Shown: in pieces, positions 31-11,091 of the stretch
Numbering within the stretch: position 1 is the first letter of the stretch
Layout: the number at the start of each line of letters is the position of its first letter
Assembly: GCA_963827955.1 (NCBI GenBank)
Contig: CAWHDJ010000018.1
Span: forward strand, 1,309,297-1,373,296
DNA length: 64,000 nucleotides
From: an uncultured delta proteobacterium
GTDB taxonomy: Bacteria; Myxococcota_A; Polyangia; Polyangiales; Polyangiaceae
Direction of reading: 5' to 3'
Notes under the pieces: model-generated
What the model was told of the DNA's origin: nothing
Seen by the model: the letters and a program-made list of their open reading frames with translations, nothing else
Databases searched by the model: none
Program-made: the position numbers and the translations under genes

Positions 31-681
31 CTATCGGTGGCACGTCGTGCAATTGGTGAGGCTGCGGATCCCGAGCTCTCTCACGAGCTCACGGCCGAGC
101 TCGAGCTGCTGGTCTCCGGCCGACCAGCTCATGTTCGTGATCTGGTCGAGAGGTCTGATGTATTGCTCGGGGTTCCGGTGGCAATCGAGGCACCACCCCA
201 TCGTCAGCGTGGGGACCTGGTGGACCGCCGCCATCCGGTCCACGCGCCCGTGGCAGGTGGCGCAGCCGAACCCGTGCGAGACGTGGATCGAGTGGTTGAA
301 ATACACGAACCCGGGGACCTGGTAGACGCGGTTCCACGGGATCGGCGCGCCGGAGAAGTAGCTCCTCCGGACGACCTCGAGCATGGGACTTTGATTCCAG
401 ATCTGGGAGTGGCAGCCCATGCACTTCTCCGTGGACGGGATGCCAGCCGTGGCCGCCCGATCGACGGTGTTGTGGCAGTACCGGCAGTCGATGCCGTCGT
501 CACGCGCGTGGTGCCGATGGTCGAACTCGACCGGCTGATCCACGACGTTCCACTGGTCGCGGGCCCACTTGGTTCGCACCCAGATCATCGGGGAGGCGAT
601 GACGCCGAACCCGCCGATGACCGCGGCCGCGATCGCGACCCGGAACGCGGTATTGCTCCACGGAGGGAAGACGGCGGCCAT
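31..681 (-). CDS. membrane-anchored pentaheme c-type cytochrome (alternative complex III ActA-like)
   Basis: ORF 31..876(-). Five CxxCH haem motifs (CRYCH, CMGCH, CATCH, CLDCH, CTTCH) follow an N-terminal TM helix (AAAVIGGFGVIASPMIW). Start placed at the ATG of MAAVFPPW (681). The operon partner would lie off the left edge. Confidence 0.7.
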   Translation of the reverse strand: MAAVFPPWSNTAFRVAIAAAVIGGFGVIASPMIWVRTKWARDQWNVVDQPVEFDHRHHARDDGIDCRYCHNTVDRAATAGIPSTEKCMGCHSQIWNQSPMLEVVRRSYFSGAPIPWNRVYQVPGFVYFNHSIHVSHGFGCATCHGRVDRMAAVHQVPTLTMGWCLDCHRNPEQYIRPLDQITNMSWSAGDQQLELGRELVRELGIRSLTNCTTCHR

Positions 682-1004
682 GGTCCCCGAGCCGCGCGGC
701 TGACAAGCACGCTGCGGCGGGGGGCACGTAGCGCTAGGGGGGGAGAGGAGGGAGGGAGGGAGGGCCGCAATGCGGTTCGGGTTGGACGTGGGGGGTGTAC
801 GGTGGGCGTAGGCGCGAGCGAGGGCGATGCGTCGCGGACGATGTGGTGAGAGCTTCCACCGGAGAGCGGCGCGCACGCCGTCGGCGGCCTGCTTGGTCGT
901 TCAATGTCACTGGAACCGGCGGGGCATCATGCTCAGACGGCGTCGGCTCGGGAGGCGACCTGGAAGCGCACGTGGGGTAGGCGCCTCGGGGAGCGGCGCG
1001 AGCC

Positions 1005-2960
1005 TCAGCGGGGAGGCGCGGCGGACGGTGTGGACACGGGGGATCGCGGCCCCCTCGCCTCGTCCGGGAGCAGGTTCGCGAGCCGGAAGGTCTGGAGGAA
1101 GGCACGCTGCTCGGCGCGCTGGAGTGTGTCCTGGAGGCGCGCCATGAGCACGCCGGGCACGATCACCAGGAAGACGCTGGAGACCAGGAGCCCGATCAGC
1201 GTCGGGAGCGGAGAGAGGGTCACGGCGCGGGGGAGGATGATCATGGCGCCGTCGTGGAAGGCGTACGAGGGCGGGACGAGCCCGGCGATCTCCGCACCGA
1301 ACGAGGCGAGCACCGCGACGGCGCCGGTGACGGCGACGGCGACGCGGAACGAGCTATTGTACGTCATGCAGTAGCCGAGGGTGAACGCCGTGAGGAGCGC
1401 GGGCATGAAAAGGAGCGGGCCGAAGCCGCTCCCGATGCAGACGATCGAGAGGACGTTGCCCAGGTACGCGGCGAAGGCGGCGCGGAACATGGACCGTGGC
1501 GCGGCGCAGCGGGAGGCCACGACCTTCATGCCGGCGGCGGCGAGCGAGAGGGCGACGGCAGCGACGAGGACCGCCGGCGTGCGCAAGCCCATCCAGAGGG
1601 CGATGGGCGTCATCAGGGTGATGCCGGCGAGGTCGGCGCCGATGGCCTGGCGGAGCTGGAGGCGGTTGCGCGCCGCCGCGTGCGCTTCGGTCTCGGCGGC
1701 GACAGCGGCGGGGATCTCGCGGGGGGCGGCGCTCAGCACCCCCGCGACGACGCGCAGCGCGGCGGTGTTGGTCGGCTCGAGGGCCAGCGCGCGCCCTGCC
1801 TCCGCGAGCGCGACGCGCACCGCGTCCTCTGCCGGGGAGCGCCCGGCCGCCTCCTCGGCGGCGCGCGCGTGCGCGGCGGCCGCCTGCCGGCGCAGCTCCA
1901 GATCGCGATCGCCCTCGAGGAAGCGCTCGACGGCGTCGTGCAGCTCCCGCGCGCTCTGGTGGCGCTCTGCCGGATCGACGCAGGTGGCCTTGATGCAGAC
2001 GGCGTCGAGCTCCGGGGGCACGTCACGGTCGGGAGCGCGCTCGGAGGCCTTCGCGTTCACGCCGTCGACGGTGGCCATGAGCATGGCGGCCCAGGTGTCC
2101 TTCTCGTGCAGGGGCGTGAGCGTCAGGATCTCGAAGAGCACGGCGCCGAGGGCGTACACGTCGCTGCGGGAGTCGATGTCGGCGAGGGCGCCGCGGGCCT
2201 GCTCCGGCGGCATGTACCCGCAGGTGCCCATGATCGTGCCGACCTCGGTTCCCACGCCATCGCGCTCGCCGTCGAGGATGGTGTCCCCCGGCGCGTTCAG
2301 GAGCTTGGCGATGCCCCAGTCGAGGACGTACACCTCCCCGTACTCGCCCAGCATCAGGTTGTCCGGCTTGATGTCCCGGTGGATCACCCCTCGGGAGTGG
2401 GCGTAGTCGACCGCGAGGCAGACGGCGGCGAACGCGCCGAGGAGGCGCCGCCGGGGGAAACGCTCCGCGCCCGGGTCGCCGCGCCGCTGCGCCCGGAGGA
2501 TCTCGGAGAGGGTCTTGCCGCGCAGGCACTTCATCGTGAAGAACGCGGTGCCCTCGTCGTCCGCGTCGAGGTCGTGGACGGGGACCACGGCCGGGTGCTC
2601 GAGCTGCCCCTGCACCCTCGCCTCCCGCAGGAAGCGGGCGATGGCGCCTTCGTCCCGCCGCGCCTTCGCGGTCATCCGCTTCAGGGCCACGTCGCGGCCG
2701 ACGTGCACGTCGCGGCACAGGACGACCTCGCCCTGCGCGCCCCTGCCGAGGGTGCGCGTCGGCGCGTACCGCCGTACGCCTGCGGCGAGGCGTGCGCCCG
2801 CGCCGAGGGGCGCGCCGGTGCCCGGGCCCACCGGCGGCGGGGCCGAGGGCTCGAACGCGCCGGGCGGCCGCTCCTGGACGGTTCGGGGCAGGGCAGCGTC
2901 GTCCGAGGGCTCCGGGCTGGGCATGGGGAGATCCTTGCCCATCCGGGAAGCGTGCGGCAA
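1005..2960 (-). CDS. Ser/Thr protein kinase with C-terminal polytopic membrane domain
   Basis: ORF 1005..2960(-). Hanks kinase motifs are present: VALKRM (Lys), HRDIKPDNLML (catalytic loop), DWGIAK (DFG-equivalent) and GTCGYMPPE (APE). About 4-5 TM helices follow after residue ~430. The start is ambiguous (2960, or MGKDLPM near 2939). It is co-directional with and immediately downstream of the RiPP genes. Confidence 0.85.
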   Translation of the reverse strand: MPHASRMGKDLPMPSPEPSDDAALPRTVQERPPGAFEPSAPPPVGPGTGAPLGAGARLAAGVRRYAPTRTLGRGAQGEVVLCRDVHVGRDVALKRMTAKARRDEGAIARFLREARVQGQLEHPAVVPVHDLDADDEGTAFFTMKCLRGKTLSEILRAQRRGDPGAERFPRRRLLGAFAAVCLAVDYAHSRGVIHRDIKPDNLMLGEYGEVYVLDWGIAKLLNAPGDTILDGERDGVGTEVGTIMGTCGYMPPEQARGALADIDSRSDVYALGAVLFEILTLTPLHEKDTWAAMLMATVDGVNAKASERAPDRDVPPELDAVCIKATCVDPAERHQSARELHDAVERFLEGDRDLELRRQAAAAHARAAEEAAGRSPAEDAVRVALAEAGRALALEPTNTAALRVVAGVLSAAPREIPAAVAAETEAHAAARNRLQLRQAIGADLAGITLMTPIALWMGLRTPAVLVAAVALSLAAAGMKVVASRCAAPRSMFRAAFAAYLGNVLSIVCIGSGFGPLLFMPALLTAFTLGYCMTYNSSFRVAVAVTGAVAVLASFGAEIAGLVPPSYAFHDGAMIILPRAVTLSPLPTLIGLLVSSVFLVIVPGVLMARLQDTLQRAEQRAFLQTFRLANLLPDEARGPRSPVSTPSAAPPR

Positions 2961-3098
2961 GTCGGTGCATCCTCGAGGCGCGGCGTACGACGTCAGTCGC
3001 AGCCCGCGGTCTTCCTCATGGAGGCGCTGGCGCTGTACGAGCCGCAGATCGGCTTGGTGCTCCTGGCCGGCGTCGAAGAAAGGGGTCGGTGCGCGGCC

Positions 3099-3995
3099 CT
3101 ACGCCCCCGCGGCCCCCCCGCAGACGCGGCACCACGGCAGCCGGACCAGCGTGCACAGCTTGGTCTCGAAGGTGACGAGGTCCTCGATCAGGATGCGCCC
3201 CCCGAGCATCGACCGCGTGTAGCCGGAGACGATCTTGACGACCTCCGTCGCGACCAGGTGACCGAGGAGCCGCGCCATGATCGCGGTCCGCGCGCCGTGC
3301 GCCGTGCGCTCGCCGAGCGGCGGGTTGAGCGCCTCGGCCGACGCGCAGATCCGGCAGGCCGTCCTGCCCGGCACCGTGAGCGGCCCGATCACGGCGCGGG
3401 CCCCGTCGAGGTGCGACCAGAGCGTGCGGACGCCCGCGCGGTGCGCGATGCTCGCGACGCGGCCCGCCTCGGCCACGTCCTCCGGGGCCAGCGCGGGGAT
3501 GAGGAGGCTCGTCCCGGCGTCGATCTTCCCCTCCGCGAGCCGGTCGATCGCGCCGATGCCCGCCGCGCGGAGCTCCGCGACCGCGACGTCGCCCCAGGGC
3601 TCGTACCCGGCCAGGAGCAGGCGCGCGGAGGCGAGCCGCTCCAGGGCCGCCGAGGGAGCGACCGACCAGCGCTGGAGGAACTCCAGTTGCCCGCGGCGGC
3701 TCTCGTCACGATCGTGGTCCGTCACCTCCTCGACGAGCCCGCGCTCCACGAGCCGATCGAGGAAGCGCGATACGCTCTCGGGCGCGTAGCCGGAGAGCGC
3801 CGCGATCACGGCGCCGCGATCGCGCGACCCGTCGAGGAGCGGCACGATCCGCGCCAGGAACGCCTGGGCGTCGGCGCCCGCGACCTGGAAGGTGCCGAGG
3901 TCGGACCGGACGATGACACCGGCCGACGTGGTGGTGACGCTCGCGGAGCTCCGGAGGAGGATGGGTGTCACGGGCGCGCCTCCTCGTCTGCGGGC
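3099..3995 (-). CDS. E1-like (ThiF/MoeB-fold, Ocin-ThiF-like) RiPP partner protein with N-terminal RRE-like extension
   Basis: C-terminal ~300 aa of ORF 3099..4736(-). Rossmann motif LLLAGYEPWGDVAVAELRAAGIGAI, a CRIC...CRVCGG Cys pair at the C-terminus, and a ~140-aa N-terminal domain (MRRTARRR...). It is a paralogue of the E1 domain at 6150-6838. The N-terminus appears in-frame with sagB only because the sagB C-terminus is frameshifted; the true start is probably near 3995. Confidence 0.6.
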   Translation of the reverse strand, partial: ARRRGGAPVTPILLRSSASVTTTSAGVIVRSDLGTFQVAGADAQAFLARIVPLLDGSRDRGAVIAALSGYAPESVSRFLDRLVERGLVEEVTDHDRDESRRGQLEFLQRWSVAPSAALERLASARLLLAGYEPWGDVAVAELRAAGIGAIDRLAEGKIDAGTSLLIPALAPEDVAEAGRVASIAHRAGVRTLWSHLDGARAVIGPLTVPGRTACRICASAEALNPPLGERTAHGARTAIMARLLGHLVATEVVKIVSGYTRSMLGGRILIEDLVTFETKLCTLVRLPWCRVCGGAAGA

Positions 3996-4736
3996 TGTCC
4001 GACGCATACGACGTAGAACGGCTCCTCGTCCTCCGGCAGTTGCAGGAGGGCGCCGAGCTTCCCGATCGTAGAATCCGCCGATCGCGGTCGGTCCGAGCCC
4101 GATCGCCGTGGAGACGAGGTAGATGTTCTGGCCGACGTGCCCGGCGTCGAGGAAGAGGTGCCGATAGCCACGCTGGCCGTACTTCCACATCGTCCGCTCC
4201 CGGATCGCCGTGATCACGACCACCACGTTCGCGTGGCGGGCGACCTCCTGATCCACCAGGAGATCGACCAGGATCGGCTGCGCGAGCCCAGGGACGACGT
4301 GCTCCAGCGCGTGGTCGCGCGCGTCGTAGTGGTAGATGCCGTCGGCGAGCCCCTCCACGGCCTGCGTCGCGACGTAGAGCTCGAGCGGATAACGCCCGCC
4401 GGCCGAGGGCGCCGGCCGGCGGAACCCCTCCTCGCCCGGCCCGCCCCGCGTGACGCGGACGCCGTACGACGCGTACAGGAGGCGCCCGAGCGTCGGGAGG
4501 GGCATGGGCCGGAGCGTGTAGTTGCGGACCGAGCGCCTCCGCTCGAGCGCGGCGCCGAGCGGCATGTCAATCGCGAAGTCCCTCCCGGGCAAGGCCGTGC
4601 GCGCGGCGCCGGGGTAGGTGCGGAGCTGCGCGGGCTGCCGGTCGAGGTCCATGATCGGCGCGATGATGCGCGCGCGCTCGTGAGAGGAGTGTGTGTGGAA
4701 GAGCCGGGCGACGTCCGCCTCGGTACGCGTTGCCAT
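3966..4736 (-). CDS. SagB-type (McbC-like) FMN-dependent azoline dehydrogenase; apparent frameshift near 4050
   Basis: The N-terminal 230 aa of ORF 3099..4736 carry nitroreductase/SagB motifs (RRSVRNYT, GGRYPLELYV, YHYDARDHAL, YRHLFLDAGHVGQNIYL). The conserved C-terminus IGKLGALLQLPEDEEPFYVVCVGQPADEEARP* is in another frame (ORF 3968..4171(-)). The frame switch falls at the GGFYD|IGKL junction. Confidence 0.75.
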
Positions 4737-4745
4737 CGCTTTGCC

Positions 4746-6838
4746 TCAGGCCATGGGGTGGGGATCGGGGTTGATGCCGCGGGAGGCCATCGCCGAGAGG
4801 CGCGGGTTGCCGAGCCGCTCGAGGCCATGGCCGAAGTGGATCTGCTGGAAGCGCGCGCCGAGGGCGCGGGCCACCCGGATCGGCGTGCCGGCGGAGATCC
4901 GGCGATGTCACGTCGACGATGGCGACGCGGAGCCCCGCGGCGGCGAGGCGCCTGCACAGCACGTCGGACGTGACGGCCTCGGGCTCGGGCAGATCGGCGG
5001 CCGCGACCTCGCCGCCTGCGCCCAGGAAGGCGAGCGCCCCCACGCGGTGCTTCGGCACGTAGTAGAGGGCATGGTCTTCGAGCGTCTGCACGTCCTCGGG
5101 ACGCTGCGGGATGGTCCGCTTTCCCTCCGCGACGAGCCGGCACATCCAGGGCCCGAGGTGGCCCTGCTCGAGCAGCGCCCGCGCGATGGCGGTGCGCGGC
5201 CGGAGGTGCGCGGCCATGGACACCGTGGCGCCGGGCCACCCCTCGCCGTCGCCGTACCCGACGCAGATCACGACGGGGATCCCCGCCCCCACCTCGAGCA
5301 GGTACAGCTCGACCCGCGTCCCGCGCTCCTCAATCTGGCGCGCCGCCTCGCGGGCCGCGGCGTCGACCGTCCGGTCGAGGAGCACGCGCCGCCCCGGGCG
5401 CCGCGTCAGCCACGCGATCATGAAGGCGTCGCGCTCGCAGAGCTCCAGCGCGGCCGAGAGCGCGGCGCGGTCGAGCGTCGGCCCGGCGGCCAGGCCGTTC
5501 GAGGTCACGTCGCAGAAGCGCGCTTCCGGGGTGACGGGGAAGCTCATGTAGGTGGGCAGCGCGGGGACCATCACGGGAGCGCGCGAGTCGAGCCAGAAGC
5601 CGCGCACCCAGTCGATCGTCGTGTACGGAGAGAGGCGCGCGAACGGGAAGCCCGGCTGGGCATACTGGCGGTCGCTGTAGAGGCCGAGATCCTGCGGAGA
5701 GAGGAAGTCGCCCTCCATCTCGGCCACGGCGGCGCGGAGCAACGAAGGGTGGTGGAAGCGGCTCGCCGAGTAACGCTCGACCGCCTCGCCCACGGCGCTC
5801 ACCAGGGCGCGCAGCGCGGTGGTGCCCTTGCCGGAGCCCAGCTCGGGGCCGGCGCAGCACGCCGGCACATCGCCCTCTGCCACGCGCGAGAGGACCGCGG
5901 AGGCCGCGATCGGTACGTCCGGCTCCAGCGGGGACGCCGCCGCGCGGACGACGAGGCCCCGGACGATGCCGGTGCGTCGATCCACGACGCCGGCCAGCAT
6001 GCGCCGCAGCTCCTCCGGATCGCGCGCTCGGTCCATGTCCTCGCCGTTGCCCTCGGGCGCGGCGGCGCCGAAGTGGTACGCCCCGCCGCAGACCGAGCAG
6101 TGCGGCATGCGCAGCACGGCGTGGAAGCTCCGCCTCCATCGTGACCAGGTTCTGGACGCAGAGCCGGCCGAGGAGGGGATGGGATCCGGGGCGCGCGAGC
6201 AGGTCGAGCACCGAGAGCGCGAGGGCATGTCCGAGCAGGGCGGGCATGGACGCGAGGTAGGTGCGGGCACGGGCGCGCGGCCGATCGGAGAGCCACGCGG
6301 CGTGGAGGGCGTGTTCGAGATCGAAGCTCGCGCTGGCGGCGAGGCGCCGGAGGCGACAGCACTCCCAGCACGCCGTCTTTCCCGGCACGACCGCCGGCCC
6401 GACGACCGCGTCGAGGCCGTCGAGGTGGGCGCCGATCGAGGCGAGAGAGGCCCGCTCGGCGAAGCGTGCGACGCTTTGCAGCGCGTGCAGATCGTCGCCC
6501 GGCAGCGCGGCGACGATCAGGTCCCAGCGCGCGTCGGGAAGGGCGAGGGAGCGATCCTGGTCGATCGCCAGCGGCCCCGCGGTGACGACACAGCGTGGCG
6601 CGGCCTCTGCCAGCGACGCGCGGAGCGCCTCCGCGCGCCCTCGCCCGAGGTCCTCTTCGCCGAAGAGGCGGGCATACGCCCGATCGTCGGCGGTGACCTC
6701 CCGGTCGTCGAGGATGTGGAGCGCGCCGAGCCCCGCCGCGGCGAGGTCGGTGGCTGCGACGGCTCCCCATGGCTCGACGCCGCAGAGGAGGACACGCGCG
6801 TGAGAGAACCTTGATTCGATGGACGATGACGTGGACAC
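4746..6838 (-). CDS. E1-like-YcaO fused azoline cyclodehydratase (PatD/TruD-like architecture); two apparent frameshifts
   Basis: The E1-like Rossmann domain lies in ORF 5330..6838(-): ARVLLCGVEPWGAVAATDLAAAGLGALHILD and GKTACWECC, running to ...LVTMEAEL. The sequence continues in the ORF 4567..6270 frame as HAVLRMPHCSVCGG... followed by the YcaO domain (GSGKGTTALRALVSAVGEAVERYSA, ...DRAALSAALELCERDAFMIAW). The YcaO C-terminal consensus GTPIRVARALGARFQQIHFGHGLERLGNPRL...NPDPHPMA* lies in a third frame. Frame switches are near 6140 and 4885. GTG start at 6838. Confidence 0.75.
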
Positions 6839-6849
6839 ACCCGCTCCGG

Positions 6850-6885
6850 AGACGATGGGCGCGCCGCGCGAGATCTCTCGCGCCG
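6850..6885 (-). promoter_or_regulatory. GC-rich near-perfect inverted repeat between precursor gene and modification genes
   Basis: gcgcgccgcgcgaga-tc-tctcgcgccgcgcgc: 15-bp arms with one mismatch, centred on agatct. It lies ~55 nt after the precursor stop (6941) and ~12 nt before the E1-YcaO start (6838). Confidence 0.4.
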
Positions 6886-6940
6886 CGCGCCCGGATCGAA
6901 GATCGCGATCAGCGCACCGGCCTCGCGGCGCTCGCCGCCG

Positions 6941-7168
6941 TCAATGGCAGCCCTCGCAGCGGAAGCAGCGGAAGCAGCCCTCGCAGCGGAAGCAGCCCTC
7001 GCAGCGATGGCAGCCCTCGCAGTGATGGCAGCCCTCGCAGCGGAAGAAATGGGCCGTGGGCAGGTCTTCCGACTCCCCCCCGGCGATGGCCCGGATCGCG
7101 TCGCGGACTTCGTTCAATGACAGATGGAGATCGTCGACCTCCACGGTGGATCTGGTCGTATCGTTCAT
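6941..7168 (-). CDS. RiPP precursor peptide: 42-aa leader + Cys-rich repeat core (RCEGC[H/F])n
   Basis: The ATG at 7168 is preceded by the SD-like tgggggg. The 75-aa product is MNDTTRSTVEVDDLHLSLNEVRDAIRAIAGGESEDLPTAHFF-RCEGCHHCEGCHRCEGCFRCEGCFRCFRCEGCH*. It has 11 Cys in 33 residues. It sits directly upstream of the YcaO/E1/SagB genes on the same strand. The core is encoded by an 18-bp DNA tandem repeat. Confidence 0.8.
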   Translation of the reverse strand: MNDTTRSTVEVDDLHLSLNEVRDAIRAIAGGESEDLPTAHFFRCEGCHHCEGCHRCEGCFRCEGCFRCFRCEGCH

Positions 7169-7405
7169 GGTGCCCCCCACGCGGACACATGGGGCCCGCT
7201 GCCTGGCCCGCAAGCCGTCGCGGGCGCCGCTTCGAGTGTCCGGGGGGCCGGGGACCGCCCTCGTCTCCGCCGCGTACCCGCGTGCGCCGGCTTACCGATC
7301 CACCGCTTTCCTGCGCCGCGGCGTGAGCCGGAGCTCACGCTCGACGTTGATTGGGCGAGGCCCGCCCGATACGCCGTACCGACCTCTTTTCTCGCAAAGG
7401 ATGTC

Positions 7406-8787
7406 ATGTCGGTCACGTCGGCTTCGCGCTTGTCCATCCTCCTCGGCTTCCTCGCCCTCGGCTGCGCGGAGCGCCCCCTCTCCGCCGAAGAGACGATGTC
7501 GTCGAGCGGCCCCGCCATCCACTTCGTGACCGGCGCCGGGGAGGTCACGCGCACCTTCCTTCCCGAGCAGGTCGACGTGAAGCTCACCGGCCTCCCGCCG
7601 GCGAGCCGCGTGACCCTGCGCGCGTCGATGCCCGGCTTCGCGTCGCACGCGACCTTCGTCGCCGACGCGGCGGGCGCGGTCGACGTCGCCGCGCAGGCGC
7701 CCGAGGAGGGCACCTACGAGGGCGCCGACGCGGAGGGGCTGTTCTGGTCGATGCTCTCGACGGGCGCGGCTTCGGCCGGCGAGCCGGAGCACATCGACGT
7801 CGACGTGCGCGCCGAGCTCGAAGGAAAGGTGGTCGCGACCGCCACGCTGGCGCGGGACGACACCGCTCCCGGCGTCGTCGAGACGCCCGTCCATGACGAC
7901 GGCCTCGTCGCCGTCCTCGTCACGCCGGCGGCGCCGGGCCCGCACCCCGCGCTGCTCACGTTCGGCGGATCGGAGGGCGGCATCGACTGGGGCCGGAAGG
8001 CGGCGCGGCTCTACGCCTCCCTCGGCTACACCTGCCTCGGCCTTGCGTACTTCGGCGCGCCGGGGCTGCCGCAGCACCTCGAGGATCTCCCGCTGGAGTA
8101 CTTCGGCAAGGCGCTCGCATGGCTGAAGCAGCGCCCCGAGGTGAAGGCCGACGCCATCGGCGTCATGGGCGTCTCTCGCGGCGGCGAGCTGGCGCTCCTC
8201 CTCGGCGCCCACTTCCCGGACGTGAAGGCGGTCGTCGCCCAGGTGCCGAGCGGCGTGGTCTGGCCGGGCTGGGATCCGGACCAGGCGGAGAACAACACGG
8301 GATCGTGGACGCTGGGCGGAAAGGAGCTCTCCTACGTGAAGCCGAGCGACACACCGCCGAAGTTCACCCGCGACGGCAAGGGACATGAGATTCGAGCACG
8401 ACACCCCCATGTTCACGGGCGCGCTCGCCGCCGCCTCGACGGCGGATCTCGACGCCGCGACCACGCCCATCGAGCTCGTGAAGGGCCCCGTGCTCCTGCT
8501 CGCTTCGGCCGACGATCAGATTCTGGCCCTCGTGCCGGCTCGCCGGCATCGCGATGGACCGCCTCCAGAAGACCGGGCACGCGGACGCCTTCGCCGACGA
8601 CTTCGTCTGCTACCCGGAGGCAGGGCACATCACGGGCACGCCCGGCCTGCCGACCACGGGGCTGCCCCTCCTCGAGAGCCACGCGCACTCCTTCATCGCG
8701 ATCGGTGGCACACCCGCGGGCATCGCCCGCGCGGCGCGCGACGAATTCGAGAAGAAGCGCGCTTTCCTCGCGGCCGCGCTCCAGTGA
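7406..8787 (+). CDS. secreted BAAT/acyl-CoA thioester hydrolase family protein (two apparent frameshifts)
   Basis: Signal peptide MSVTSASRLSILLGFLALGCA. BAAT_C motifs LTFGGSEGG and GVMGVSRGGELALLLG (Ser nucleophile). The continuation is in ORF 8385..8870 (GPVLLLASADDQIL) and ORF 8554..8787 (CYPEAGHITGTPGLP...KRAFLAAALQ*). Confidence 0.7.
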
Positions 8788-8802: not shown

Positions 8803-10158
8803 TCAGCGCCCGTCGACGAAGGTCTCGTACTTGCCGTTCGCCTGCCGCGGGATCGGGGCAGGCCCGGTGAACCTCAGCCGGAAGGGGTGGCCGAGCGCCT
8901 CCTGGATCCGCGCGCCGCTCGCCTGCTCCTCCTCGGGGCCCAGATCGCGCTCGCGCGTGAACCGCACCTCCATCGCGTCCGGCCCCTGCTGGATGACCTG
9001 AATCCACTCCACGTCGGGGATCGCGGCCCACAGCGCGCCCACGTCCGGCCACGCCCGGCGCCCGTCCGGCAGCGTGACCAAGTTTCGCCGCCGGCCGAGG
9101 AGCCGCTCGATCACCGGCAGCCCGCGCCCGCACGGGCAAGGCGCGCCCACCTCCGCGTAGTCTCCGATGGCGTACCGGATGAGCGGCATGGCGAAGTTGT
9201 GCAGGCTCGTCAGCACCACACGCCCGATCTCGCCGGGCCGCGCGGGTAGCCCCTCCTCGTCGAGGATCTCGACGAGGACCGATTCGGACTGCACGTGGTA
9301 GTGCTCGTGCCGCGGGCACTGGAGCGCGACGAAGCCCAGCTCCTCGCAGGAGTACACGTCGCGCACCGGCACGCCCCACGCCTCGCGGCAGGCCTCGCGT
9401 ACGTCCGGAGTCAGAGGCTCTCCGTACGTGTGTACGGCCCGGAGGCCGGGCAGGCGGATCTTCTCTCGCTGCGCGTACCGGGCGAGGGCGCGGGTGTTGC
9501 TGGGATACGAAAGGAGGTAGTGCGGGCGCCGGGCCTCGATCACCTCCATTTGCCGAGGGATCGGCATGAGATGATAGAGCACCGTCACCGGGCCCGTCTT
9601 GCAGACCACCGGCGACATGAGCCCCCAGCTCGGTAGATCCTGGACGGCGAGCGGGTCCGGCGCGTAGCGCCCGGAGCGGATGGCGACGAGCCGCCCGTCG
9701 AGATCTCGCTCGTGCCAGAGGTCGTCGCGGAGCGCGAGGGTCCGCCAGAACAGGCCGGTCACCTCCGTGCACACCACCTCGAGGGGCTCGCCCGTGGATC
9801 CCGAGGTCTTGTTCCGGTACGTCCTGCCGTGCGCGAGCGGGACGGCCCGGCTCTGGATCTCGTCGTGGTGCTCCCGGATGTCCTGCTTCGTGAGCAGGGG
9901 AATCCGCCGCCACGCATCCTTCGTCACGGGCCCATGTCCGTCGCAGCCGGCGGCCGCGAGCCGGCCCCCGTACCACGGCACGGTCGACGAAGCGTGCTCG
10001 AGGAGCTTCGCGAGCTGCCGAAGCTGGCGAGCCTCGATCTGCTCGGCAGGCAACCACTGGCTGCGTTCGAGCTGGAACTCCATGGAGAGGAGCGTCGAGT
10101 CCTCTCCCGTCACGATGGCAGGCCAGACGACCTCGGGGATACACGACCAGAGATTCAT
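8803..10158 (-). CDS. phenylacetate-CoA ligase (PaaK)/F390-synthetase family adenylate-forming enzyme
   Basis: C-terminal 451 aa of ORF 8803..11340(-), starting at ATG 10158 (MNLWSCIPEV). AMP-binding motif TSGSTGEP. It is in-frame with the upstream TetR region only because there is no stop codon between them. Confidence 0.8.
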   Translation of the reverse strand: MNLWSCIPEVVWPAIVTGEDSTLLSMEFQLERSQWLPAEQIEARQLRQLAKLLEHASSTVPWYGGRLAAAGCDGHGPVTKDAWRRIPLLTKQDIREHHDEIQSRAVPLAHGRTYRNKTSGSTGEPLEVVCTEVTGLFWRTLALRDDLWHERDLDGRLVAIRSGRYAPDPLAVQDLPSWGLMSPVVCKTGPVTVLYHLMPIPRQMEVIEARRPHYLLSYPSNTRALARYAQREKIRLPGLRAVHTYGEPLTPDVREACREAWGVPVRDVYSCEELGFVALQCPRHEHYHVQSESVLVEILDEEGLPARPGEIGRVVLTSLHNFAMPLIRYAIGDYAEVGAPCPCGRGLPVIERLLGRRRNLVTLPDGRRAWPDVGALWAAIPDVEWIQVIQQGPDAMEVRFTRERDLGPEEEQASGARIQEALGHPFRLRFTGPAPIPRQANGKYETFVDGR

Positions 10159-10283: not shown

Positions 10284-11091
10284 TCAGCCCGAACGGCGCC
10301 GAGAGGTCGTGGGGCCCGCTCCGCGGGCCCGGGGTCCAGGGCTCGCTTGCGAGCCCGCCTGGCGAGGCGGGCCGCTTGCGGCCCCATCGTGACCGGTGCG
10401 CTCGGCGATGGGCTGCGCCGCGACGCCCGTGGCTCGGGTGACCGCGTCGTAGAGCACGAGCTTCAAGAGCTCCACCAGCTCCGCCTTCCCCACGTCGCGC
10501 CGTGCCACCCAGTCGATCGACGTCGCCTCCACGAACCCGATCCACCCGCGCAGCGCGATCCGCACGAGCGGCCCCGGGAAGCTCGGTGGGCATCCCCTCG
10601 AAGATGCGCTCCGCGAACGTGCTGCGCGTCTCCTCCAGGATGGCGGCGACCTCGGGATCCGAGCCGATGCCCCCGCGCATCAGCGCCACGTACGCCTTGC
10701 CGTGCCGCTCCACGAAGGCGAGGTACGTCCCGAGCCCGCGCCGCAGCCGCTCGTCCGGCGTCCCCGGGAGGACCATCGTCGTGTCCTCGAGGAGCCGCTT
10801 CGCCGCGTGCTCGAGCGCGGCCACGTAGAGGTCCCGCTTCGTCGGGAAGTAGTGGTAGAGCAGGCCCTTGGAGACGCCGGCCGCGCGCGCCAGGTCGTCA
10901 ATCGACACCTCGTCGTACGATCGCTCGCTGAACATGGCGAGCCCGAGCGAGAGGAGCTGGGCGCGGCGCTCGTCCACGTCGAGCCGCGCCCGCGGACCGC
11001 CTCCGCTCCTCTCCGGCGGGCGCTGCGAGGCGGGCTTCGCCGCCTCCCGCGTTCGCGGGCGGGGCGGCGGCGAGGACGCGCGTCGGGCCAT
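10284..11091 (-). CDS. TetR/AcrR family transcriptional regulator (apparent frameshift near 10560)
   Basis: The HTH VSIDDLARAAGVSKGLLYHYFPTKRDLY lies in ORF 8803..11340 from the M at 11091. The ligand-domain tail LRGWIGFVEATSIDWVARRDVGKAELVELLKLVLYDAVT lies in ORF 10284..10565(-). Confidence 0.7.

Follow-up and report, generated by a model that had tools for sequence, protein, structure and literature searches.

How does an azoline-forming cyclodehydratase recognize its precursor peptide when the domain expected to bind the leader is carried by a different protein, and does such an arrangement represent a new family of peptides that are ribosomally synthesized and then modified post-translationally (RiPPs)? 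These questions are raised by a compact gene cluster in a 64,000-nucleotide (nt) stretch of DNA, hereafter the window, from an uncultured delta proteobacterium of the Polyangiaceae (assembly GCA_963827955.1, contig CAWHDJ010000018.1, positions 1,309,297 to 1,373,296 of the forward strand). A first-pass annotation had described four back-to-back minus-strand genes as an azoline/azole RiPP operon of the thiazole/oxazole-modified microcin (TOMM) or linear azol(in)e-containing peptide (LAP) type, with an adjoining Cys-repeat precursor, and our analysis supports this description. We are confident that the cluster is a four-gene TOMM/LAP operon, that it represents a myxobacterial subtype of the catalogued ‘anabaenasin’ group, and that the frame breaks within it are probable sequence errors. 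The functional reading made at first pass is correct, as is the observation itself save for gene boundaries and three base corrections. The cluster adds a new and fairly divergent member to a TOMM group already catalogued, and standard annotation recognizes the proteins of the cluster.

The four-gene operon and its precursor peptide

Four co-directional, tightly packed genes occupy the minus strand from 7168 down to 3099, as read from the list of open reading frames (ORFs) and their translations, in a region of ~72-75% G+C. The genes and their parts are given below, with lengths in amino acids (aa); RRE denotes the RiPP recognition element, FMN flavin mononucleotide, AF2 AlphaFold2, and L002 the homologous locus most closely related to the window.

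6941-7168, minus strand: precursor peptide gene, 75 aa plus stop (ORF, translation, homologous precursor at the same position in L002)
7168-7040, minus strand: precursor leader, approximately residues 1-43, motif DDLHLSLNEVRDAIRAI (translation)
7039-6944, minus strand: precursor core, residues 44-75, CEGCHHCEGCHRCEGCFRCEGCFRCFRCEGCH, 11 Cys-Xaa-Xaa units (translation)
4746-6838, minus strand: fused E1-like/YcaO cyclodehydratase, 696 aa once corrected (TIGR03604, TIGR03882, PF02624, PF00899)
~6811-6085, minus strand: E1-like (ThiF-type) domain of the fusion, with CWEC...CSVC zinc-site cysteines and no RRE
~5832-4749, minus strand: YcaO domain of the fusion, with GEAVERY, SNGLAAG and ELCERD motifs and a C-terminal PDPHP
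3968-4736, minus strand: SagB-type FMN dehydrogenase, 255 aa once corrected (TIGR03605, PF00881)
3099-3971, minus strand: stand-alone RRE plus E1-like ‘F-like’ protein, hereafter F, 290 aa (TIGR03882, RRE alignments, AF2 model)
~3971-3690, minus strand: N-terminal RRE / winged-helix domain of F
~3650-3102, minus strand: E1-like domain of F, with CRIC...CRVC cysteines

No second cluster and no further Cys-repeat ORFs were found within the 64-kb window. For comparison we used 78 loci from a scan of one genome per species, searching for the domains in all of them; loci in which the RRE lies on a separate protein are called split-type, and those in which it is fused to the cyclodehydratase, fused-type.

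The 75-aa precursor proposed at 6941-7168 was borne out. The ORF, read from 7168 to 6941, encodes MNDTTRSTVEVDDLHLSLNEVRDAIRAIAGGESEDLPTAHFFRCEGCHHCEGCHRCEGCFRCEGCFRCFRCEGCH, and a purine-rich, Shine-Dalgarno-like GGGGGG run lies upstream of its ATG. An 18-nt tandem repeat encodes the core, in which every third residue from residue 44 is Cys; the 11 Cys make up 34% of its 32 residues, Gly accounts for 5 of the 32, Glu, His, Arg and Phe occupy other positions, and Ser and Thr are absent. A search for precursor homologues, recommended at first pass, returned one at the same position in L002 with 66% identity (tblastn 1e-26), and a Cys-rich ORF was present just upstream of the cyclodehydratase in every split-type locus. 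A leader motif, (K/D)(D)-L-x-hydrophobic-x-hydrophobic-x-E-hydrophobic-R/H-x-A-hydrophobic-x-x-L, is common to 15 aligned precursors and also occurs in the fused-type relatives. The cores across the family are hypervariable repeats, such as CRCGGGGG, CSCS..., CGHCHC and CGGGCHR, with CEGCHR in the window and L002. Because Cys-rich ORFs recur at this upstream position and the leader motif is shared among relatives, the small ORF is, as judged from these comparisons, a real gene and the predicted substrate of the operon. In an NCBIfam scan the precursor matched TIGR03601 alone, over the core region only and below the cut-off (22.4 bits against 35), and gave no match to the NHLP or Nif11 leader models (TIGR03793/03795/03798).

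The fused cyclodehydratase and the dehydrogenase

Profile hidden Markov model (HMM) searches, which the first-pass annotation had put forward as a check, placed every enzyme of the operon above the curated NCBIfam cut-offs. The fusion protein scored 239 bits against TIGR03604 (cut-off 219.25) and 51 bits against TIGR03882 (cut-off 36.9), and it matched Pfam families PF02624 (YcaO; 1e-64) and PF00899 (ThiF; 9e-19, residues 10-249). Its domains are those proposed for the E1-YcaO fusion at 6838-4746, but the gene, which starts with GTG at 6838, is not open as written; it spans three reading frames as given and needs two frame corrections. At E <= 1e-10, 196 homologues of the corrected fusion were found. 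Those of full length (~700 aa, 57-73% identity) came from Sorangium, Minicystis, Nannocystis, Byssovorax and metagenomes and are called ‘TOMM precursor leader peptide-binding protein’ by NCBI; no public protein exceeds 73% identity to the fusion. When the fusion was aligned with 12 homologues, the invariant columns included GEAVERY, SNGLAAG, ELxERD and a C-terminal NPDPHP. The first three are ATP/Mg-binding motifs, and a PxPxP tail is typical of azoline-forming YcaO members.

YcaO enzymes also catalyze thioamide and amidine formation, and the fusion did give a secondary match to the McrA thioamidation YcaO model, far below threshold (94 bits against a cut-off of 365). We considered on this account whether the enzyme might install thioamides or amidines rather than azolines. 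The best match, however, was to the azoline-forming SagD-type model (TIGR03604), above its cut-off, and the combination of an E1-like partner, SagB and a core with Cys at every third residue is the signature of azole formation. Furthermore, no TfuA-like gene was found among the five nearest genes (cytochrome, kinase, BAAT-family, 449-aa ORF and metal-dependent hydrolase), and we assign this alternative a negligible probability.

The third gene was confirmed as a member of the SagB family, with 150 bits against TIGR03605 (cut-off 78.4), a PF00881 match of 2e-27 and the WKYG Lys-Tyr motif. It starts with ATG at 4736 and spans two reading frames as given; one frame correction is needed, and the gene ends at 3968 rather than at 3966 as first annotated.

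A search of PDB profiles identified TruD, LynD and MusD as the structures closest to the fusion, which aligned only from TruD residue ~165-177 onward. With the ThiF match beginning at residue 10 and a gap of ~100 nt between the precursor and fusion genes, there is no room for an N-terminal RRE, and the fusion lacks one. The domain order had been likened at first pass to PatD/TruD, but these enzymes carry an N-terminal RRE that is absent here, and the comparison has to be revised.

A stand-alone paralogue carries the putative leader-binding domain

The missing domain appears to reside in the fourth gene, which is intact as given. Its start is most likely the GTG at 3971, which overlaps the SagB stop codon as GTGA, and not 3995 as first proposed; the N-terminal extension relative to the fused E1 domain is ~100 aa instead of ~140 aa. 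F scored 43 bits against TIGR03882 (cut-off 36.9). Residues 39-211 align to TruD 38-214 (E = 2.6e-6), and residues 4-82 to the isolated RRE of PbtF, a protein from a thiopeptide system (PDB 8T19; E = 2.9e-5). The AF2 model of F, built with 28 homologues (predicted local distance difference test, 87.7), has a beta-strand/three-helix N-terminal domain followed by a Rossmann-type domain, and its best full-length matches were LynD/TruD domains 1-2, then MccB and PaaA, all of which combine an RRE with an E1-like domain. From these alignments and the matches of the predicted structure, F is taken to be a complete ‘C protein’.

The two E1-like domains of the operon cross-match at ~29% identity (tblastn E = 1e-18 and 2e-9), end in the tails LVTMEAELHAVLRMPHCSVCGG and LVTFETKLCTLVRLPWCRVCGG, and both keep the CxxC...CxxC zinc-site cysteines. 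These results confirm the paralogy and shared tail noticed at first pass, and F is evidently a paralogue of this family's own C domain. We recovered 78 stand-alone homologues of F, and all the named ones come from Sorangium, Minicystis, Byssovorax or Nannocystis; their NCBI name is again ‘TOMM precursor leader peptide-binding protein’. F had also been called an Ocin-ThiF-like leader-binding partner. As a description of function, leader-binding partner stands, but TIGR03693 (Ocin-ThiF-like) gave no match in F even at E <= 10. Membership of F in the Ocin-ThiF-like family was ruled out by this absence, TIGR03882 being matched instead.

Residues 54-86 of F gave weak, sub-threshold Pfam matches to HTH_Crp_2, MarR_2 and HTH_IclR, which raises the alternative that F is a winged-helix transcription regulator or accessory factor and that the fusion recognizes the precursor alone. 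On the other hand, the N-terminus of F aligns to the peptide-binding RREs of TruD, LynD and PbtF, this RRE is fused to an E1-like domain, and the model in its entirety can be superposed on LynD/TruD domains 1-2 and MccB. Across the loci F was confined to those whose cyclodehydratase has lost its RRE, and loci with a fused RRE never had it. We consider a regulatory F very improbable, and a leader-binding role for F is retained in what follows.

Single-base frame breaks

The fusion and SagB genes are interrupted in the window by three frame breaks, each of which was located by DNA alignment:

6125-6126, minus strand: frame break 1, duplicated T, GAGCTTCCAC against GAGC-TCCAC in L002
4893-4894, minus strand: frame break 2, duplicated C, GATCTCCGCC against GACCT-CGCC in L002 and Minicystis
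4059-4060, minus strand: frame break 3, duplicated A, CGGGAAGCTC against CGGG-AGCTC in locus L084

In tblastn searches with the intact L002 proteins, the alignments crossed the frame changes near 6125, 4893 and 4059 without loss of a residue, and removal of the three duplicated bases yielded clean ORFs of 696 aa (fusion) and 255 aa (SagB) with their motifs intact. L084 is a 1.19-kb short-read metagenome contig (ENA ERZ27256653, k141_742149); it is 95% identical in DNA to window positions 3100-4220, and its F protein is 93% identical. This level of DNA identity indicates that a close relative of the source organism is present in the public sample from which L084 derives. The SagB gene of L084 reads straight through to ...GGFYDRELGALLQLPEDEEPFYVVCIGQPADEEARP*.

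Three frame breaks within 2.9 kb of enzyme-coding sequence could also mean that the operon is a decaying pseudogene cluster, in which the frameshifts are genuine and neither a functional cyclodehydratase nor a functional dehydrogenase is made. We evaluated this possibility from the nature of the breaks and from the surrounding genes. All three are single-base duplications, with no deletions, nonsense codons or catalytic-motif losses; protein identity to the intact homologues is unbroken across each of them; and the SagB site is intact in the 95%-identical L084. Compared with its L002 orthologue, the divergent BAAT-family neighbor carries two one-base insertions of the same duplicated-base type, near 8391 and 8521; near 10560 a TetR-like gene also looks split and seems to continue in another frame, suggesting that the rate is not specific to the cluster. 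The defects occur at about one per kb, a rate that seems to hold for the window as a whole, are uniform in type and lie outside the cluster too. Plots of G+C at third codon positions over the whole 64 kb were too noisy for gene boundaries and frameshifts to be separated, and the frame breaks that we claim are the five checked against homologues (three in the cluster and two in the BAAT gene). As the BAAT neighbor carries two more breaks, sequence error is the likelier explanation; decay is unlikely, and the three breaks are, on these comparisons, most probably errors. The operon is therefore probably intact in the organism. The three one-base duplications need correcting before the sequence is passed to biosynthetic gene cluster tools or used for expression constructs.

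Relation to known azole-peptide systems

The combination of genes had been put forward at first pass as not a described family, a proposal that did not hold. The same gene order recurs in 24 loci, and homologues are listed by Cox, Doroghazi & Mitchell 2015 (PMC4603692), whose Table S2 places So ce56 A9GCG7 and So0157-2 S4Y1K9 under ‘anabaenasin’. That paper gives the group five sentences, reporting that it occurs in 11 species and has a ‘discrete cyclodehydratase’, ‘a unique C protein’ and precursors rich in Gly and Cys, and treats it as a presumed isofunctional group with no characterized member (PMC4603692). The precursors listed there for A9GCG7 and S4Y1K9 are those that we recovered from two of our loci (L024 and L026). 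The similarity-network threshold for anabaenasin is BLAST E < 1e-54 to members, and the window cyclodehydratase (D protein) lies within it, with E = 6e-240 to P0049 and E = 4e-251 to P0019, the representatives of the 90%-identity clusters containing A9GCG7 and S4Y1K9.

The window shares Cys-rich precursors and gene order with anabaenasin and also shows differences. The cyclodehydratase is described as discrete in the paper, whereas in the window and all Polyangia loci D carries a truncated C domain as part of the same chain; the So ce56 sequence on which the 2015 work drew is a 555-aa mis-call. The ‘unique C protein’ corresponds to the RRE-E1 paralogue in the window and the Polyangia loci. In addition, the window core has Glu, His, Arg and Phe between the Cys residues and not mainly Gly. 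We also tried the Sorangium entries listed as NHLP-Burk in Table S2 of Cox 2015 as a match for this family and rejected them, the accessions of the true homologues, A9GCG7 and S4Y1K9, being listed under anabaenasin instead.

A reading of the cluster as a new, undescribed RiPP family, built from a PatD/TruD-type fusion and an Ocin-ThiF-like partner, was that of the first-pass annotation. It draws on the fact that we found no experimental paper on the group, and that the split arrangement in the TIGR03882 lineage is not spelled out in the literature found. It is opposed by the abundance of homologous loci of the same architecture already annotated as TOMM, by the listing of Sorangium members and their precursors as anabaenasin in Table S2 of Cox 2015 (PMC4603692), by the missing PatD/TruD RRE of the fusion, and by the failure of F to match TIGR03693. 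We give little credence to this reading and prefer assignment to the anabaenasin group.

The closest functional parallel is heterocycloanthracin. As outlined in PMC4603692, its three conserved components are a fused cyclodehydratase missing ~100 N-terminal residues, a leader-binding Ocin-ThiF-like F protein and a B protein. Its precursors are Cys repeats (PMC4603692), with a repeating unit defined as Cys-Xaa-Xaa (Haft 2009). The heterocycloanthracin / sonorensin systems of Bacillus (HcaD/HcaF) resemble the window in having a fused C-D enzyme without an RRE, to which a leader-binding E1-like partner on its own chain and SagB are added as the sole conserved enzymes, and in the repetitive Cys-Xaa-Xaa pattern of the core. 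In contrast, the window partner does not belong to TIGR03693, its precursor lies below the TIGR03601 cut-off, its leader is unrelated, the heterocycloanthracin precursor is distant from the enzymes where that of the window adjoins them, and the hosts differ (Bacillus versus Myxococcota). Since TIGR03601 was sub-threshold and TIGR03693 absent at E <= 10, we conclude that the window cluster works like heterocycloanthracin and is not a member of that family.

Thiopeptide F systems (PbtF/TbtF; the micrococcin TclI scaffold) are similar in that an RRE-bearing E1-like protein delivers the precursor to a non-binding YcaO; the window, however, has no dehydratase, [4+2] cyclase or other thiopeptide genes, and its F falls into another HMM family. 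The fusion and F both match the TIGR03882-type E1 domain seen in PatD/TruD/LynD and in NHLP/Nif11-type systems, and distant relatives of the window enzyme have the single-chain RRE-E1-YcaO layout of PatD/TruD/LynD. Unlike in cyanobactin systems, the RRE of the window is on a separate paralogue and the four-gene operon contains no PatA/PatG proteases or macrocyclase; unlike in NHLP/Nif11 systems, the precursor has no NHLP or Nif11 leader. The RRE-Finder paper places the RRE of heterocycloanthracin and thiopeptide systems on TIGR03693 proteins and that of other LAPs on TIGR03882 enzymes that both bind and cyclize. The present clade is a third case, an enzyme of the TIGR03882 lineage with its RRE moved to a paralogue.

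Distribution and evolution of the split arrangement

The split type comprises 24 loci, in Sorangium, Minicystis rosea (two loci) and Nannocystis, each with an RRE-less E1-YcaO, SagB and RRE-E1; the same layout is found in L002 and the window. The order precursor, E1-YcaO, SagB, RRE-E1 is kept in L002 and in the 24 Polyangia loci, and the family is retained throughout Sorangium, whose genomes often hold two loci. The fused type comprises 34 loci, from Chloroflexota, Acidobacteriota, Gemmatimonadota, Undibacterium, Shewanella, Marinomonas and others, in which the RRE is fused to the cyclodehydratase and F is absent.

In a neighbor-joining tree of the E1-like domains, F sequences formed one clade and the RRE-less fusions another, with mirrored internal topologies, and both clades were placed among the fused-type sequences. 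On account of these clades, their mirrored topologies and their placement, the tree is consistent with one duplication and, after it, the loss of complementary domains in an ancestor of these myxobacteria. According to PMC4603692 and the RRE-Finder paper, truncated fused cyclodehydratases that depend on F are an established feature of heterocycloanthracin and thiopeptide systems. We lean, by a modest degree, toward an independent origin of the Polyangia F-dependent enzyme: a single-chain RRE-E1-YcaO protein would have been duplicated and the copies would have lost the RRE or the YcaO domain, giving an obligate F:cyclodehydratase heterodimer in which a trans-acting RRE-E1 protein can serve more than one cyclodehydratase and precursor. 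If true, this would be a natural, datable example of RiPP leader recognition becoming a separate subunit, and the transfer of recognition onto a paralogue of the enzyme's own C domain is a possible test case for multi-subunit RRE-dependent enzymes. Wider interest in the locus is limited to the split-RRE architecture and the probable independent origin of that architecture.

Some Sorangium loci contain two cyclodehydratase units and two different precursors with a single F. This combination of two enzymes and two substrates with one F fits a role for F as a shared leader-binding subunit in such loci.

Several details of these tandem loci were also recorded. Two tandem E1-YcaO genes occur in L001/L016 (S. 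cellulosum So ce26), L007 (So ce388) and L017 (So ce131), each with a Cys-repeat precursor of its own ahead of it, and the leaders of these precursors are similar. A second SagB gene is present in So ce26, and a single RRE-E1 (F) gene stands at the end of each tandem locus. The So ce26 gene call upstream of the second cyclodehydratase, L001:7573-7770, is in the wrong frame (MQVRRLSLRRLSLRR...); the true precursor, MSDSNDTKDLDLSVNEIRSAINDL...CRCGGCRCGG..., is read from this repeat in a different frame, at L001:7382-7750. Gene callers are misled by these repetitive, high-GC cores.

Among the fused-type loci, SagB is followed in L003:9217-11838 and L004:9323-11953 by an ~875-aa guanylate cyclase, AAA/STAND, TPR protein, which may be a dedicated regulator; nothing equivalent adjoins the cluster of the window. 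The proteobacterial fused-type loci L043-L045, L047, L050-L055 and L062-L063 (Undibacterium, Shewanella, Marinomonas and Burkholderiaceae) have Cys-rich repeat ORFs of up to ~300 codons upstream, with repeat units that look like CxxCQPT.... No SagB match was found in these proteobacterial loci, which suggests azoline-only products or a different oxidase.

Predicted mechanism and product

We propose that the 75-aa precursor is translated and that its conserved leader helix, DDLxLxLNEVRDAIRxI, is bound by the RRE of F, as the homology to the RREs of TruD, LynD and PbtF would suggest. By analogy with HcaF/HcaD and LynD, the E1-like domain of F would dock on the RRE-less E1-like domain of the fusion, and the resulting F:fusion heterodimer would replace the homodimer of the single-chain RRE-E1-YcaO enzymes. 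The YcaO domain, observed with its motifs, would then use ATP to cyclodehydrate the 11 Cys, one at every third residue, to thiazolines, and the FMN-dependent SagB, likewise observed as a domain, would be expected to oxidize these to thiazoles. Genes outside the operon would be needed for leader removal and export.

The predicted product would be a linear peptide of ~32 residues with up to 11 thiazol(in)es, each contributing a mass change of -18 or -20 Da. Because Cys occupies every third position, the array would be regular, with each thiazole followed by two ordinary amide bonds and no adjacent rings. The core is distinctive in its unusual Glu/His/Arg/Phe Cys-Xaa-Xaa repeat. The practical value of the locus is modest, as one more, rather divergent, member of a chemically uncharacterized azole-peptide family.

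Several points weigh against our assignment and have to be set beside the evidence above. The reading of the frame breaks as errors comes from comparison with homologues. Leader binding by F and contact between F and the cyclodehydratase are postulated from homology and precedent. The operon contains no protease, exporter or immunity gene, in agreement with the first-pass annotation, which had reported no protease or transporter inside the cluster, and simple scans of 2800-7500 detected no promoter or terminator. There is no characterized product for the anabaenasin group, and we found no literature after 2015 that uses the name. The lack of a linked exporter, protease or immunity gene, taken with conservation across Sorangium, leads us to speculate about a role inside the cell or one other than that of an antibiotic, such as the binding of metal through thiazole and His.

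Neighboring genes

The genes flanking the operon had been offered at first pass as candidate members. Their identities were confirmed:

7406-8787, plus strand: BAAT-family / acyl-CoA thioesterase gene, divergent neighbor (PF04775, PF08840)
1005-2960, minus strand: Ser/Thr protein kinase, neighbor, 140-175 nt downstream of F (PF00069, 1e-36)

Both were rejected as demonstrated parts of the cluster. The BAAT gene is conserved only beside the closest relative, L002. The kinase is not an orthologue of the one that adjoins Sorangium loci; it shares only its catalytic domain with the kinase downstream of F in one Sorangium locus type, and the position downstream of F holds no kinase in L002, Minicystis or Nannocystis, nor in the second Sorangium locus type.

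Convergent with the BAAT gene is a 449-aa ORF (8803-10150, minus strand) that had no Pfam match at E <= 1e-3 and, judged by eye, is similar to adenylate-forming (PaaK/CapK-like) enzymes; one long open frame is common to this ORF and the TetR-like gene that lies upstream. An ORF at 31-876 (minus strand), near the window's left edge, contains five CxxCH heme-binding motifs and looks like a multiheme c-type cytochrome, which appears unrelated to the cluster.

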